64,000 nucleotides of DNA, from contig CALJRW010000023.1 of NCBI GenBank assembly GCA_937976335.1, forward strand, positions 511-64,510, read 5' to 3'. This document shows positions 38,400 to 64,000 of this stretch, in pieces. A program made the translations under genes and the position numbers. Positions within the stretch are counted from its first letter, which is position 1, and every line of letters starts with the position of its first letter. The notes beneath the pieces are model-generated. The model was not told where the DNA came from. It made no database searches and worked only from the letters and a program-made list of their open reading frames with translations. Origin of the DNA: an uncultured bacterium. GTDB taxonomy: Bacteria; Bdellovibrionota_C; UBA2361; CALJRW01.

Positions 38400-38735
38400 T
38401 TATGATGCCTTCTTATACTCAGGAAAATACCAAGGAGCCATTTTTCTATTTCCTCTTTTAGGCATTTCTTTAATTATTTTTGAAACACTTTTATAATTTA
38501 AATCAAGTTGTTCACAAATCCAGGCAAAAGAAAATAATCGATTTTCATCATCTGAATTCTCACCAAAGAGCCAATTGTGTGCCTCATTTATCTCTATTTG
38601 ACTATTGCCTACATAGTCAAGAATAGATCTCTCTAAAATTGCCATTAAAAGGTTTCTTTCAGGTGTTCCAGTTTGATTTGGAGCTGAGTATGAACCGTTA
38701 GGCTCAAAGATTCTTATATTGTTTGTATTAGACAT
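38400..38735 (-). CDS. Hypothetical protein
   Basis: 111-aa ORF. No motif recognised. Confidence 0.4.
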   Translation of the reverse strand: MSNTNNIRIFEPNGSYSAPNQTGTPERNLLMAILERSILDYVGNSQIEINEAHNWLFGENSDDENRLFSFAWICEQLDLNYKSVSKIIKEMPKRGNRKMAPWYFPEYKKAS

Positions 38736-38856
38736 AAAATTATCTCTCTTTTTTGTTCGTTATATATAGACGTGGGTTGGTAGGAATAATTCAAATAAAT
38801 AGGCCTTATATATTAGGTGGTTATAAGAAAGTTAGTTATTGATACAGATTGAATAC

Positions 38857-38977
38857 TTTAAATTTTCCTTTCTCCTTAGCCATCCCCCTTATCTTTATCT
38901 TCTCCCTGATCCTGCTCTTTCTCTTTCTCTTTGTCTTTCTCTTTGTCTTCACCTTGATCCTGATCCTGATCTTGATC
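38857..38977. repeat. Left arm of a long inverted repeat flanking the four-helix-bundle gene (pyrimidine-rich)
   Basis: It begins TTTAAATTTTCC, contains CTCCTTAGCCA, and ends in a perfect 31-nt core at 38941-38971 (CTTTGTCTTCACCTTGATCCTGATCCTGATC). That core is the reverse complement of 39370-39400. Confidence 0.85.
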
Positions 38978-39014
38978 AAGAAACTTTGTTCACTAAACCG
39001 TCGATAGTATAATT

Positions 39015-39356
39015 ATGTTTGCACATGAAAAATTTCATCCTTATATTTTCAGTATAGAGTTCGCTAAAATTGTTGTAGATATTTGCAAAAAACTTCCTAC
39101 AGGATCATCCTCAATTCGAGATCAACTTAAAAGAGCCACGTTTTCTGTTTCTCTAAATATTGCTGAAGGAACCGGCAAGTTTAGTGAGAAAGAAAAATTA
39201 AGATATTATAGAATTGCTAGAGGGTCTGCTATAGAATGTGCAGCAATATGTGATATTCTTGAATTGCAAGATCCTAAGTTAAAAGTACTAACAGCTGAAG
39301 GGAAAAAATTGCTTATATCTATTGTAAATATTTTAAGTACTATTTGTTCTAAGTAG
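39015..39356 (+). CDS. Four-helix-bundle protein (23S rRNA intervening-sequence protein / Avd family)
   Basis: 113 aa. Family-typical IRDQLKRATFSVSLNIAEGTGKFSEKEKLRYYRIARGSAIECAAICDIL. Confidence 0.8.
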   Translation: MFAHEKFHPYIFSIEFAKIVVDICKKLPTGSSSIRDQLKRATFSVSLNIAEGTGKFSEKEKLRYYRIARGSAIECAAICDILELQDPKLKVLTAEGKKLLISIVNILSTICSK

Positions 39357-39362
39357 TATGTG

Positions 39363-39454
39363 AGATTAGGATCAGGATCAGGATCAAGGTGAAGACAAAG
39401 ACGAAGAGAAAGAGAAAGGGAAGGATAGTGGCTAGGAGGAGTGGAAAATTTAAA
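39363..39454. repeat. Right arm of the long inverted repeat (purine-rich)
   Basis: GATTAGGATCAGGATCAGGATCAAGGTGAAGACAAAG...TGGCTAGGAGGAG...GGAAAATTTAAA. This is the reverse complement of the left arm with ~30 nt of indels. Confidence 0.85.
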
Positions 39455-39483
39455 TTTGAATGAAAGTTTTCGATAAGAATAAA

Positions 39484-40710
39484 CTAGCTTAATACACCTA
39501 AGACTCTCTCTACCTGCTCAAGAGAACTAAAAGGTTCTATTTCCTCGTTAGCACTGCCCTCAAACAACTTAGAAGGAAAATAAGGGAAAGGAATAGATAA
39601 AGCAGATTCTAATTCTAACAAGACCTGTGGATCTTCTTGCTTATCTTTATTTTTTTTAAACTGAGCTTTAAGTTTAAGTATTTCTGTTAATCCAAGTCTA
39701 TAAACTTTTTGAAGACCAAGCTTTATATAAGCATTTTTATAGTCATATTTTTCTTTTTCTAAAACTTCAAATCCTATTTCTATAGCACCTTTAACTTTTT
39801 CTGTGAGCTCAAAAACTGAATTAGTTTCATGAAAATCAATACCAAAATGAACAATTCCAGCATTCATAAGAAGACCTAATTCCATTTCAATTTCTTCTCT
39901 AAACTTGGCTTCAGTTATTAAATTATACAATCGATTTTGAAACATGCTTTGATAAATTAGAGATTTTAGTGAGTAATAGTCTTTTGTTTTTAAAGCTTCT
40001 ATGTCTTTATTGAGATCTGTTTTTAAGTGTTCAAAATTAATTTTAGAATTGATTTCATATGCCCATTCTGGATCAGGAATTCCTTCAGCTAAAAGTCGTT
40101 TTGTTTTTTCTTGATAAGATTCTTCCATTAATACTGTTTTCGTACTAACTGATGGCATTTGAATAAGTTGATAAAAAAGCTCAGCAGAAGTTTCAAAAAT
40201 TAAAGCTAGAAGTCTTGAAAAAGCAAAATGCTTATCTTCCTCTTCTAGTTTAATTCTTATCCATGTATAGCCTTGATCTGGTGTGAAAAATCCGCCTTCT
40301 GGTGGTTTTTCAGTAGGTTCTGTGAAAACAACATGTTCAACATATTTGCCGATTAGTAAAGTGACTAACTTAAGGTCACAAAATTTTAAAAATTTTTGTA
40401 GAAATTTTAACTCGTTTTCACTACTTCCTATTTTAATCCATTCCCAAAGATTATCTTCTGAAAGTTCATCTTTACTCCAGCAATCAAAGTCTATAACTAA
40501 CCTACATTGTTCAATTCTTGCTACATTCAAAACTTCAATTGCATTTTCATGATCGAGTAGTTTTATGGCTGTGAATAGGTTTTGAGCAGGTAAGCTTCTA
40601 ACTTCTTCATCAGTAAGCTCTGCCTTAAAGAGAGCTCTAGCTAAGAGTTTAGCTGACATGTCTTTTATTAATTTAGGTGTATTCTCTGAATTTCTCGTTT
40701 CTTTGTTCAT
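39484..40710 (-). CDS. Conserved hypothetical protein
   Basis: 408-aa ORF, predicted helical. No catalytic motif recognised. Confidence 0.45.
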   Translation of the reverse strand: MNKETRNSENTPKLIKDMSAKLLARALFKAELTDEEVRSLPAQNLFTAIKLLDHENAIEVLNVARIEQCRLVIDFDCWSKDELSEDNLWEWIKIGSSENELKFLQKFLKFCDLKLVTLLIGKYVEHVVFTEPTEKPPEGGFFTPDQGYTWIRIKLEEEDKHFAFSRLLALIFETSAELFYQLIQMPSVSTKTVLMEESYQEKTKRLLAEGIPDPEWAYEINSKINFEHLKTDLNKDIEALKTKDYYSLKSLIYQSMFQNRLYNLITEAKFREEIEMELGLLMNAGIVHFGIDFHETNSVFELTEKVKGAIEIGFEVLEKEKYDYKNAYIKLGLQKVYRLGLTEILKLKAQFKKNKDKQEDPQVLLELESALSIPFPYFPSKLFEGSANEEIEPFSSLEQVERVLGVLS

Positions 40711-40774
40711 TACTTTTTTATTAATATCTTTTCTTTTATAATTATGACGGCAAAAATATAGCAGTTAAATTATC

Positions 40775-41335
40775 TTACGCTGCTTTAAGTGGTGCAAAAA
40801 CAATAAAAATCTGTCTACCTCTAGGTGGAGATTGCTCATCAATTATAGAAATATCTTTTAGCTCTTCTTTGATTTCATTAAATTTAGCAAATCCAAGATC
40901 CATGTGGGCGATTTCTCTTCCTCTAAAACGCATAGAAAATTTAACTTTATCTCCTTCTTCTAGAAATTGTCGCGCTTTTTTGAGCTTAGTATCCAGATCG
41001 CCCTTGTCAGTTCTATATCTAATTCTAAGTTCTTTGATTGAAATTTCATTTCTTTTTTTTCTAGCTTCAGCTTGTTTCTTCTGTTCTTTATATTTGAATT
41101 TCCCATAATCAAGAAGTTTGCAAACAGGCGGTTTGCCATTAGGTGCAACTTCTACAAGATCTAAGCCAGCATCTTGGGCTTTAGCTAAAGCATCTTCAAT
41201 TTTAAGAATACCAAACTGTTCACCATCTTCCCCAACAAGTCTAACTTCTTTAGCTCTTATGTACTTATTTGTTCTGTGAGTGTCTTTAGGCCGGTTGAAA
41301 CTACCTCTGCCTTTATAGTTTCCGCTTTTACTCAA
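40775..41335 (-). CDS. infC: Translation initiation factor IF-3
   Basis: IRAKEVRLVGEDGEQFGI, GLDLVEV...PPVCKLLDYGKFKYE-like, and the C-domain FRGREIAH. The ORF starts at TTG (41335-41333), with AGGA 7 nt upstream. Confidence 0.92.
   Translation of the reverse strand: MSKSGNYKGRGSFNRPKDTHRTNKYIRAKEVRLVGEDGEQFGILKIEDALAKAQDAGLDLVEVAPNGKPPVCKLLDYGKFKYKEQKKQAEARKKRNEISIKELRIRYRTDKGDLDTKLKKARQFLEEGDKVKFSMRFRGREIAHMDLGFAKFNEIKEELKDISIIDEQSPPRGRQIFIVFAPLKAA

Positions 41336-63273: not shown

Positions 63274-64000
<727 letters not shown>

Follow-up and report, generated by a model that had tools for sequence, protein, structure and literature searches.

A PF05635 four-helix-bundle gene enclosed by long inverted repeats of 6-nt units at a site outside rRNA genes

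Genes, arms and promoter-like motif at the locus

The window, that is, the entire 64-kb stretch of DNA analyzed, contains a single copy of a small gene cassette, in which an open reading frame (ORF) is enclosed by two long inverted arms. The gene (positions 39015-39356, forward strand) encodes a basic protein of 113 amino acids with a pI of 9.25. Its two neighbors lie outside the cassette on the reverse strand, namely, a gene for a conserved 111-aa protein (38400-38735), which is followed by a terminator-like hairpin (38364-38334, reverse strand), and a gene for a DUF6178 protein (39484-40710), which is located downstream of infC (40775-41335, reverse strand). Apart from the cassette gene, the ORFs between 36.2 and 42.5 kb encode Peripla_BP_6, 183-aa, 111-aa, DUF6178, IF-3, and MoxR AAA proteins. 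A gathering-threshold Rfam scan identified the 5' part of a 16S rRNA gene (63274-64000) as the sole rRNA in the window. It is situated 23.8 kb from the cassette, in agreement with the distance of about 24 kb given in an earlier note on this DNA.

That note had assigned the gene to the family that comprises the proteins encoded in 23S rRNA intervening sequences (IVSs) and the DGR accessory protein Avd, and the assignment was borne out by sequence and fold. The product matched the Pfam family PF05635 (23S_rRNA_IVP) with 61.5 bits (cutoff 33.8; E 1e-16) and TIGR02436 ("four helix bundle protein") with 61.3 bits (cutoff 24). The family signature, (G)xxRxxxSxxxNxxE (PMC3936711, after Lin et al. 2006), is present as R40-x3-S44-x3-N48-x2-E51 (DQLKRATFSVSLNIAEG), with the glycine replaced by Q37, a residue that is invariant across the subfamily. 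The AF2 monomer model (pLDDT 96.8) consists of four long helices, and its top Foldseek matches in the PDB were Xcc0516 (2GSC; TM 0.89) and BT_0352 (2RLD; TM 0.82), with Avd (4DWL/8UB7) reaching a TM of 0.76. The solved homologues 2GSC (chains A-E), 2RLD, and Avd 4DWL are pentameric. PF05635 relatives are similarly basic (median pI 9.1), and no sequence identical to the window protein is on record elsewhere.

On the forward strand, the gene is preceded by a pyrimidine-rich left (5') arm (38857-38977) composed of approximately 15 hexamers (CTTTCT, CTTTGT, CTTGAT, and CCTGAT) and followed by a purine-rich right (3') arm (39363-39454), which contains the hexamers AGGATC, AAGACA, and AAGAGA and carries ANGA every 6 nt. 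The right arm sets in 7 nt past the stop codon. Tandem Repeats Finder (TRF) detected a period-6 array at 38915-38949 of the left arm, and the longest direct-repeat family between 38600 and 39700 (37 nt) lies within the hexamer array. This construction from 6-nt units, with its periodicity and polarity, is a family-wide trait that was overlooked in the first reading.

The arms are reverse complements of each other, as the earlier note had claimed. Positions 38916-38977 and 39364-39425 form an inverted repeat of 62 nt that is 89% complementary and has several alternative registers shifted by 6 or 12 nt. The 31-nt core (38941-38971, forward strand), in which GATC recurs every 6 nt, is indeed perfect, with its exact reverse complement at 39370-39400; it has two matches in the whole window (itself and this reverse complement), where none is expected by chance. 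Equally, the outer ends pair through terminal 12-mers, TTTAAATTTTCC (38857-38868) with GGAAAATTTAAA (39443-39454), the latter closing the right arm. The mismatches within the arms comprise 5 G-U and no A-C. When scored against each other, the window arms reached 89, compared with at most 29 against same-composition arms from related loci, which speaks against low-complexity tracts that are complementary by chance. The G+C content is higher in the arms (0.37-0.42) than in the flanks (0.27-0.35); the difference is modest, and its description as marked was an overstatement.

Folding of the sense RNA (38840-39470) yielded a minimum free energy of -210.8 kcal/mol, as opposed to -137 ± 5 kcal/mol for shuffled sequences (z = -14.9), so that the predicted stem is stable, as had been anticipated. 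The antisense-strand RNA (z -6.0) and the single-stranded DNA (z -8.4) were also analyzed. The sense fold contains 93 inter-arm pairs, of which 7 are G-U, in helices of 12+8+6 and 5+23+34. The some 30 extra nucleotides previously noticed in the left arm correspond to an unpaired 25-nt bulge at 38884-38908.

A promoter-like motif (38980-39007, forward strand) is found in the loop, after the left arm and ahead of the ATG. It consists of GAAACTTT (38980-38987), 14 nt, and CGATAG (39002-39007), and it ends 7 nt upstream of the ATG. In the closest relatives (L003, L004, L007, L087, L090, and L108) the motif is kept as RGAAACTT-N13-CGATTA, the form of the clade being GAAACTT-N13/14-CGATTA. The loop motif may act as a promoter. 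A search upstream of the left arm gave no sigma-70-like promoter, and a TTGTTC-N16-TATAAT match was regarded as a chance occurrence since it overlaps the ATG. No Shine-Dalgarno (SD) sequence precedes the ATG of the window gene; among the homologous copies, an SD sequence is present where the gap between motif and ATG is long and absent where it is short. With only 7 nt from motif to ATG and no SD sequence, the mRNA may be leaderless. Transcription from this motif would start past the left arm, so that the RNA of the gene itself may carry the right arm only. The proposal of an ORF looped out by co-transcribed arms thus holds for the geometry, and is, like the suggested RNase III-controlled switch, to be qualified with respect to this transcript.

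Homologous cassettes in genomes and metagenomes

The survey covered a non-redundant set of 120 homologous copies, drawn from both genomes and metagenomes and spanning many phyla. A flanking inverted-repeat score of at least 40 was observed for 46/87 gene copies at genome loci and for 32/57 copies of an independent metagenome set, compared with about 16-25 for left and right arms mismatched across loci. For 20 of the 32 metagenome copies that reached this score, no more than 15 nt separated the stop codon from the start of the right arm. The sequence of the arms varies between loci, and their complementarity is kept within each locus. The same architecture was therefore replicated in two independent sets of relatives.

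Strong 6-nt periodicity was present in the flanks of nearly all copies, and specific inverted repeats in about half of them. The autocorrelation of the flanks was 0.39-0.41 at lag 6 and about 0.25 at other lags, and in the upstream flanks the best lag was 6 or 12 in 57/64 and 54/57 cases of the two sets. Among 73 strongly periodic 5' arms, TCNT was found in 42 (chance, about 9%) and ANGA in 8, and successive TCNT motifs were spaced by 6 nt in 220 cases. The core of the unit faces inward, with TCNT in the 5' arm and ANGA in the 3' arm, and there are about 7-15 units per arm. Family-wide, the arm mismatches included 54 G-U and 44 A-C (P = 0.36); because G-U is not in excess, the counts do not favor selection at the RNA level over selection at the DNA level. 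Cassettes between co-directional neighbors were in sense orientation in a ratio of 44:6. Ordinary bacterial genes show about the same bias, and this ratio therefore argues only against insertion in random orientation.

The homologues were found in differing, unrelated neighborhoods. A cultivable carrier among them is Sorangium cellulosum So ce56, with a cassette in NC_010162 at 9,181,539-9,189,871 (locus L056). Even at E ≤ 5, Rfam gave no relevant match at 38600-39700, and on 35 related loci it identified only tRNAs and no rRNA. A scan of the fetched genome and metagenome loci for universal rRNA motifs was negative except for an SRL-like match in L007, which Rfam did not confirm. The occupied site was compared between orthologues of the two neighbors at the level of distant synteny only, the closest DUF6178 homologue being 45% identical. 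The slot between the DUF6178 and 111-aa genes is variable between conserved neighbors, which is illustrated by L083, where it holds an unrelated 161-aa gene that is devoid of such arms. Similarly, no hexamer array was present downstream of a PDDEXK_3 gene near the cassette of L004.

In the complete MAG chromosome OZ242383.1, we identified at least 21 related cassette copies that are approximately 99% identical over about 575 nt and have sharp boundaries and unrelated flanks, from which it follows that the family has multiplied in this genome. The repeated unit reaches some 60-75 nt past the periodic arms, to different terminal hairpins of the same orientation (CACCRGC-AGA-GCYGGTG), and one copy has, in place of its left arm, the right end in inverted form, perfect over 106 nt. 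The 9-mers that adjoin the cassette in the window, ATTGAATAC (38848-38856) on the left and TTTGAATGA (39455-39463) on the right, agree in 6 of 9 positions and may hint at a decayed target-site duplication (TSD). Direct repeats of 9 bp adjoin the cassette ends in L127 and L002; with the exception of these two loci, the longest common substring of the flanks was at the null level. A strict family-wide test for terminal inverted repeats (TIRs) plus a 9-bp TSD was positive in 6/119 copies, against 4-6/119 for a displaced null. No transposase is encoded in the cassette, and a search for plasmid and phage relatives was negative. The suggestion of a mobile or formerly mobile cassette is consistent with the unrelated neighborhoods, the copies in OZ242383.1, and the variable slot in the window.

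Interpretation of the cassette and alternative explanations

With a probability of roughly 55%, we interpret the locus as a stand-alone, selfish gene cassette of the IVS type, the long stem of which would make read-through RNA excisable or insulated. The cassette is composed of the PF05635 gene, its own promoter-like motif, and the two long arms of 6-nt units, and belongs to a large family of the same plan that is scattered over intergenic sites of many bacterial phyla. Since the family has multiplied within at least one genome, it probably is, or was, a selfish mobile module. A read-through transcript of either strand would contain both arms, and it is such read-through that the stem requires, because the promoter-like motif is downstream of the left arm. 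The paired arms would form a duplex of about 90 bp that, by analogy with 23S rRNA IVSs, may be cut by RNase III, and cassette RNA would thereby be excised or insulated from the host transcript. Being excisable, the module would be tolerable at little cost inside rRNA, tRNA clusters, or operons, and the ORF-bearing rRNA IVS would represent a special case that happened to be recognized first. Cleavage by RNase III alone calls for neither a 6-nt period nor a TCNT core, and the explanation by the stem is therefore incomplete. In the literature searched, we found no published account of PF05635 cassettes that stand alone within a stem, or of arms with a 6-nt period.

Two alternatives assign other roles to the arms. 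The arms may act as DNA, as TIRs with oriented arrays of 6-bp binding sites that belong to a small non-autonomous transposable element; this element would be mobilized either by a transposase acting in trans or by its own PF05635 product, with the RNA stem as a by-product. We consider this possible, if somewhat unlikely. It would accommodate the 21 sharp-ended, near-identical copies in OZ242383.1 and the inverted right end in one of them, TCNT facing inward at both ends as for TIR binding sites, the absence of asymmetry between G-U and A-C, the significant fold of the single-stranded DNA, and the 9-bp repeats abutting the ends in L127 and L002 together with the partial match in the window. However, sites of transposases are usually conserved, and the arm sequences diverge strongly between loci. 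Furthermore, the unit in OZ242383.1 extends beyond the periodic arms, the TIR and TSD test remained at the null level, the cassette is without a transposase, and copies on plasmids or phages were not found. A slightly less probable idea, which is compatible with the other readings, is that the hexamer arrays offer the encoded protein a series of regularly spaced binding sites, so that its binding to one arm would compete with the stem and control its own expression, processing, or packaging. TRAP and HutP, which bind triplets repeated at fixed spacing, provide a model. From phylum to phylum the unit drifts, except for its strict 6-nt period and the conserved TCNT/ANGA core, which are kept. PF05635 is the sole conserved protein that accompanies the arrays; it is basic, and its solved homologues are pentameric. 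In addition, Avd binds an RNA stem-loop directly in the DGR ribonucleoprotein (bioRxiv 10.1101/2023.10.23.563531). The periodicity could nevertheless stem from replication slippage, or reflect selection for arms that do not fold on themselves and whose pairing is nucleated in many registers, and some 7-15 units per arm are not obviously tied to five subunits.

The two remaining explanations fared far worse. The earlier note had also envisaged a relic of transfer from an rRNA gene, and the geometry and ORF family are indeed common to rRNA IVSs (PMC4990558). We nevertheless judge an origin by copying of an IVS from a 23S rRNA gene to be very improbable, given that no rRNA-like sequence occurs at or beyond the base of the stem, that the fetched genome and metagenome relatives all reside outside rRNA genes, and that the cassette has its own promoter-like motif. 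The simple composition of the arms and their several pairing registers might evoke chance polypyrimidine and polypurine tracts of low complexity, an explanation with next to no probability that is refuted by the exact 31-nt reverse-complement match, the specificity with which the matched arms recognize each other, and the replication of the architecture in two independent sets of relatives.

A broader proposal, which we put forward tentatively and regard as unlikely in its entirety, is that PF05635 cassettes are unrecognized minimal selfish elements. The pentamer would read, in RNA or in hairpin DNA, the (TCNT NN)n / (NN ANGA)n arms of its own cassette, with one unit per subunit, and would in this way control excision, processing, or propagation. 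ORF-bearing rRNA IVSs would then be cassettes that landed in rRNA, and the DGR protein Avd would be a domesticated descendant whose binding to RNA stems was co-opted by the reverse transcriptase.

The nature of ORF-containing rRNA IVSs and the role of their conserved protein have been standing questions since 1993. If the free-standing cassette, namely, a gene with periodic inverted arms mostly outside rRNA, is the biological unit, the rRNA IVS would be one of the places at which a widespread module has landed. For the PF05635 family, which has thousands of members, including the DGR factor Avd, the conserved TCNT period of 6 nt provides a testable candidate ligand. One may also speculate that automated screens could take periodic arrays adjacent to PF05635 genes for other repeat-based systems.

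Comparison with known systems

The cassette shares long terminal inverted repeats and small size with MITE-like or other non-autonomous TIR elements and with palindromic elements derived from REP and IS200-IS605. The likeness extends to the copies in OZ242383.1, which are multicopy and sharp-ended and have small hairpins of the same orientation at their ends. In contrast to these elements, the cassette has a conserved ORF and no known transposase; what its arms share across loci is limited to the TCNT core and the 6-nt period, in place of a conserved TIR, and no consistent TSD was found among the cassettes.

The TR and VR of DGRs are direct repeats of about 100 nt that differ at A positions. 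No such pair was present in 38600-39700, and a reverse transcriptase gene, the hallmark of DGRs, was absent among the ORFs at 36.2-42.5 kb. The window protein has the same fold as the accessory protein Avd, with an identity of only about 9-12%; Avd forms a basic barrel of five subunits and binds structured RNA (bioRxiv 10.1101/2023.10.23.563531). Free-standing TIGR02436/PF05635 genes, such as those of Xcc0516 and BT_0352, encode proteins of the same family and fold and are often multicopy within a genome. In the literature searched, they are treated as ordinary hypothetical genes, and we found no mention of periodic inverted repeats around them. ORFs of PF05635 have also been reported inside cas operons (PMC3936711).

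The closest resemblance is to rRNA IVSs with an ORF, which include those of Leptospira and Coxiella burnetii, the Xanthomonas and Brucella types, and the 16S and 23S insertions of CPR bacteria. Insertions with a PF05635 ORF are known from scattered positions in 16S and 23S rRNA (PMC11270868). ORF-containing IVSs have complementary borders, with RNase III cutting within the stem, as established for the excision of the Coxiella IVS (PMC4990558); for the window cassette, such excision is proposed by analogy only. The rRNA IVSs are located within a 23S or 16S helix, whereas the window cassette lies between protein-coding genes. Its stem has 93 pairs, as compared to 28 bp in the Coxiella IVS, and it differs further in the 6-nt units with TCNT core in its arms and in the promoter-like motif in its loop. 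Both are of similar length, about 0.45-0.6 kb, and have short tandem repeats beside the ORF, which are GACAGAT heptamers in the Coxiella IVS (PMC4990558). In both, a PF05635 ORF is looped out by a terminal complementary stem, so that the geometry of an ORF-containing rRNA IVS, recognized in the earlier note, is found here outside rRNA.

Complementary arms around a PF05635 gene

The 113-aa protein encoded at 39015-39356 on the plus strand is basic (pI 9.25) and, by sequence, a clear member of the PF05635/TIGR02436 family, with matches of 61.5 bits (E 1e-16) to PF05635 (23S_rRNA_IVP) in Pfam and of 61.3 bits to TIGR02436 ("four helix bundle protein") in NCBIfam. An AlphaFold2 model, generated with 29 homologues as input, contains four long helices (pLDDT 96.8). 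Its best PDB matches are Xcc0516 (2GSC; TM 0.89), BT_0352 (2RLD; TM 0.82), and Avd, the accessory protein of diversity-generating retroelements (DGRs) (4DWL/8UB7; TM 0.76); 2GSC was also retrieved with a sequence profile (E 2e-15).

The gene lies between a pyrimidine-rich left arm upstream (38857-38977) and a purine-rich right arm downstream (39363-39454). Within the 64 kb, the only other match to the 31-nt core at 38941-38971 is its exact reverse complement at 39370-39400 (0 expected by chance). RNA spanning 38840-39470 folds at -210.8 kcal/mol, compared with -137 ± 5 in shuffled sequences (z -14.9), and this fold comprises 93 inter-arm pairs, 7 of them G-U, in helices of 12+8+6 and 5+23+34, with a 25-nt bulge in the left arm. 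The PF05635 match, the exact core, and this fold confirm the earlier note's observation of a gene bracketed by complementary arms that could form a long stem. Its description of the arms as markedly G+C-rich was overstated, as the enrichment is modest (0.37-0.42 versus 0.27-0.35). A stem is also predicted for the antisense RNA (z -6.0) and for single-stranded DNA (z -8.4), and the arms by themselves reach -131 kcal/mol in sense and -112 in antisense.

An Rfam scan of the whole window at the gathering threshold matched only the 5' part of 16S (63274-64000), a permissive scan of 38600-39700 gave nothing relevant, and no rRNA gene context was found among the related loci examined. The cassette, that is, the gene with its arms, is flanked by two minus-strand genes, a conserved 111-aa gene (38400-38735) and a DUF6178 gene (39484-40710) downstream of infC. 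The infC-DUF6178 order is kept in distant relatives. In one of these loci, L083, the pair is followed by the 111-aa orthologue (53% identity), and the slot between them holds an unrelated 161-aa gene without arms of the cassette type; the window cassette thus occupies a variable slot between conserved neighbors.

As a separate observation, infC (IF-3) is directly followed by the DUF6178 gene in the window (39484-41335), L083, and L085, with 41 to 46% identity in distant relatives; this conserved gene pair has a conserved 111- to 118-aa protein (53% identity) nearby in the window and L083. At another locus, L066, a PF05635 gene (2009-2371) has a tRNA gene on either side (1852-1924 and 2415-2487), a position inside a stable-RNA cluster that is reminiscent of intervening sequences (IVSs) of rRNA genes. 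A tRNA gene also lies 0.2 to 1 kb from the cassette in L004/L005 and L001.

Complementarity and 6-nt periodicity across the family

The closest homologues of the window protein (50 to 60% identity) come mostly from Bdellovibrionota metagenome-assembled genomes (MAGs) and metagenomes, and on long contigs their neighborhoods differ each time. Their arms, of 43 to 63 nt, are again pyrimidine-rich on the left and purine-rich on the right, and their sequence is locus-specific. For every gene copy located within the fetched loci, 200 to 250 nt upstream were aligned with the reverse-complemented downstream flank. Scores of at least 40 were obtained for 46 of 87 copies from species-representative genomes and for 32 of 57 copies of an independent metagenome set, against about 16 to 25 for mismatched left/right pairs. 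In 20 of these 32 metagenome copies, no more than 15 nt separate the stop codon from the right arm. The left arm ends 10 to 100 nt upstream of the start codon. The window arms score 89 with each other and at most 29 with those of a compositionally similar Bdellovibrionota group. The conserved feature is complementarity, not sequence. Carriers belong to the Bdellovibrionota, Myxococcota (including the cultured Sorangium cellulosum So ce56), Verrucomicrobiota, Planctomycetota, Desulfobacterota, Chloroflexota, Ignavibacteria, and Actinomycetota.

The arms consist of tandem hexamers, such as CTTTCT, CTTTGT, and CCTGAT in the window, where TRF reported the left arm as the sole period-6 array, CCTGCA and CCTCAT in L002, (CGTGGA)x6 in L030, AATCGT, GCTCGT, and GATCGT in L031, and (CGTGTT)x5 in the Sorangium locus L056. 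For 64 non-redundant genome copies (150 nt on each side), lag-6 autocorrelation was 0.39 upstream and 0.37 downstream, with about 0.24 to 0.29 at other lags except lag 12, and the best lag was 6 or 12 in 57 upstream and 46 downstream flanks; coding DNA further upstream had only a weak 3-nt codon periodicity. The metagenome set gave 0.405 and 0.39, with a best lag of 6 or 12 in 54/57 and 49/57 flanks, respectively.

The consensus unit contains TCNT in 42 of 73 strongly periodic 5' arms (about 9% by chance) and its complement ANGA in only 8, whereas this is reversed in 3' arms (ANGA in 16/54, TCNT in 4/54). Successive TCNT motifs are spaced by 6 nt in 220 cases. This polarity amounts to a motif facing inward from both ends. 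In L089 (1715-2450), arrays of GTGAAC/GTAGAC/GATCGT extend for more than 170 nt on each side of the PF05635 gene and contain internal duplications of ~40-nt blocks, showing that arms can grow by repeat amplification. The window right arm also contains three tandem CAGGATC units (39370-39390). These resemble the GGA-centered CsrA/RsmA binding consensus, a likeness that is probably incidental because most other phyla have ACGA rather than AGGA as the unit core.

Multiplication, orientation, and putative expression signals

In the complete MAG chromosome OZ242383.1 (4.26 Mb), 15 fetched loci contain the cassette, several in tandem, with at least 21 copies (L008-L029) that are ~99% identical over ~575 nt; their boundaries are sharp and their flanks unrelated. 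Beyond the periodic arms, the unit continues to a small hairpin (CACCRGC-AGA-GCYGGTG) at each end; the two hairpins share one orientation and look REP- or IS200/IS605-like. Some copies are arranged head to tail; in L008, the right hairpin of one (at 2060) is fused to the left hairpin of the next (at 2583). In the copy at 4001 in L018, a perfect inverted repeat of 106 nt from the right end has taken the place of the left side. No consistent target-site duplication was found across the family loci, and a search for plasmid or phage copies found none. Direct repeats of 9 bp at the outer ends of the inverted repeats, CCCTAACCC in L127 (130-747) and TGCACTCCT in L002 (3868-4403), could be such duplications; those in L127 may alternatively belong to a hexamer array of the CCCTAA type. 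Family-wide, cassettes between co-directional neighbors show a 44:6 sense bias, as do ordinary genes and unlike insertions of random orientation.

In the clade of the window, the motif RGAAACTT-N13/14-CGATTA follows the left arm and precedes the ATG (window, 38980-39007; also L003, L004, L007, L087, L090, and L108, with variants in L001 and L002). The looser RAAC-N14-18-CGAT is almost restricted to the sense strand upstream of the gene, where 9 of 120 copies have it; the antisense strand of the same flank has it in 3 and the flank downstream in 1. A Shine-Dalgarno sequence is lacking where the motif ends 7 to 10 nt from the ATG and present where it ends 27 to 41 nt away. The motif resembles sigma-28 or ECF-type promoters and is inferred to serve the cassette as a promoter of its own, giving a leaderless mRNA in the window. 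Such an mRNA would carry the right arm only and, with the promoter inside the loop, the full stem would form only in read-through transcripts of either strand or in DNA. Upstream of the window left arm, no sigma-70-like site was found. A near-consensus TTGTTC-N16-TATAAT (38986-39013), which overlaps GAAACTT...CGATAG and ends 1 nt before the ATG, was rejected as a promoter of this ORF; it is too near the ATG and probably a chance occurrence in AT-rich DNA. The left arms of other clades end 10 to 30 nt from the ATG and must belong to the 5' UTR.

Proposed mechanism and known systems

The account with the best support is that of a stand-alone selfish cassette of the IVS type. In a transcript crossing it, the arms would pair into a ~90-bp duplex. 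RNase III, which is known to cleave such duplexes, would then cut it, and the cassette RNA would be excised or insulated. Precedents for RNase III cleavage are the IVSs of Coxiella, Leptospira, and Salmonella (PMC4990558). Excision or insulation would explain why the same module occurs in rRNA, including the 16S/23S insertions of CPR bacteria besides classical IVSs (PMC11270868), in tRNA clusters (L066), and in operons such as cmr3-cmr2 (PMC3936711).

RNase III excision does not account for the strict 6-nt period or for the conserved TCNT core. Both suggest that a conserved factor recognizes the arms by sequence, and the basic PF05635 protein is the only such factor linked to them; its homologues of known structure are pentamers, and its relative Avd binds an RNA stem-loop. 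A live rival is that the arms act at the DNA level, as oriented TIR binding arrays. The TCNT/ANGA polarity is symmetric under reverse complementation and so cannot by itself tell an RNA from a DNA role. A mismatch test of the arms was neutral family-wide (54 G-U versus 44 A-C), with 5 G-U and 0 A-C in the window alone.

The accessible literature covers rRNA IVSs and PF05635 genes in various contexts, and we found in it no description of free-standing stem-enclosed PF05635 cassettes or of 6-nt periodic arms. A typical MITE was rejected, given the unconserved arm sequence and the lack of a consistent target-site duplication. Identity with a DGR was likewise rejected, as DGRs have a reverse transcriptase and a TR/VR pair, whereas the cassette has neither. 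Compared with ORF-bearing rRNA IVSs, the cassette would work alike but differs in their defining feature, the location within rRNA.
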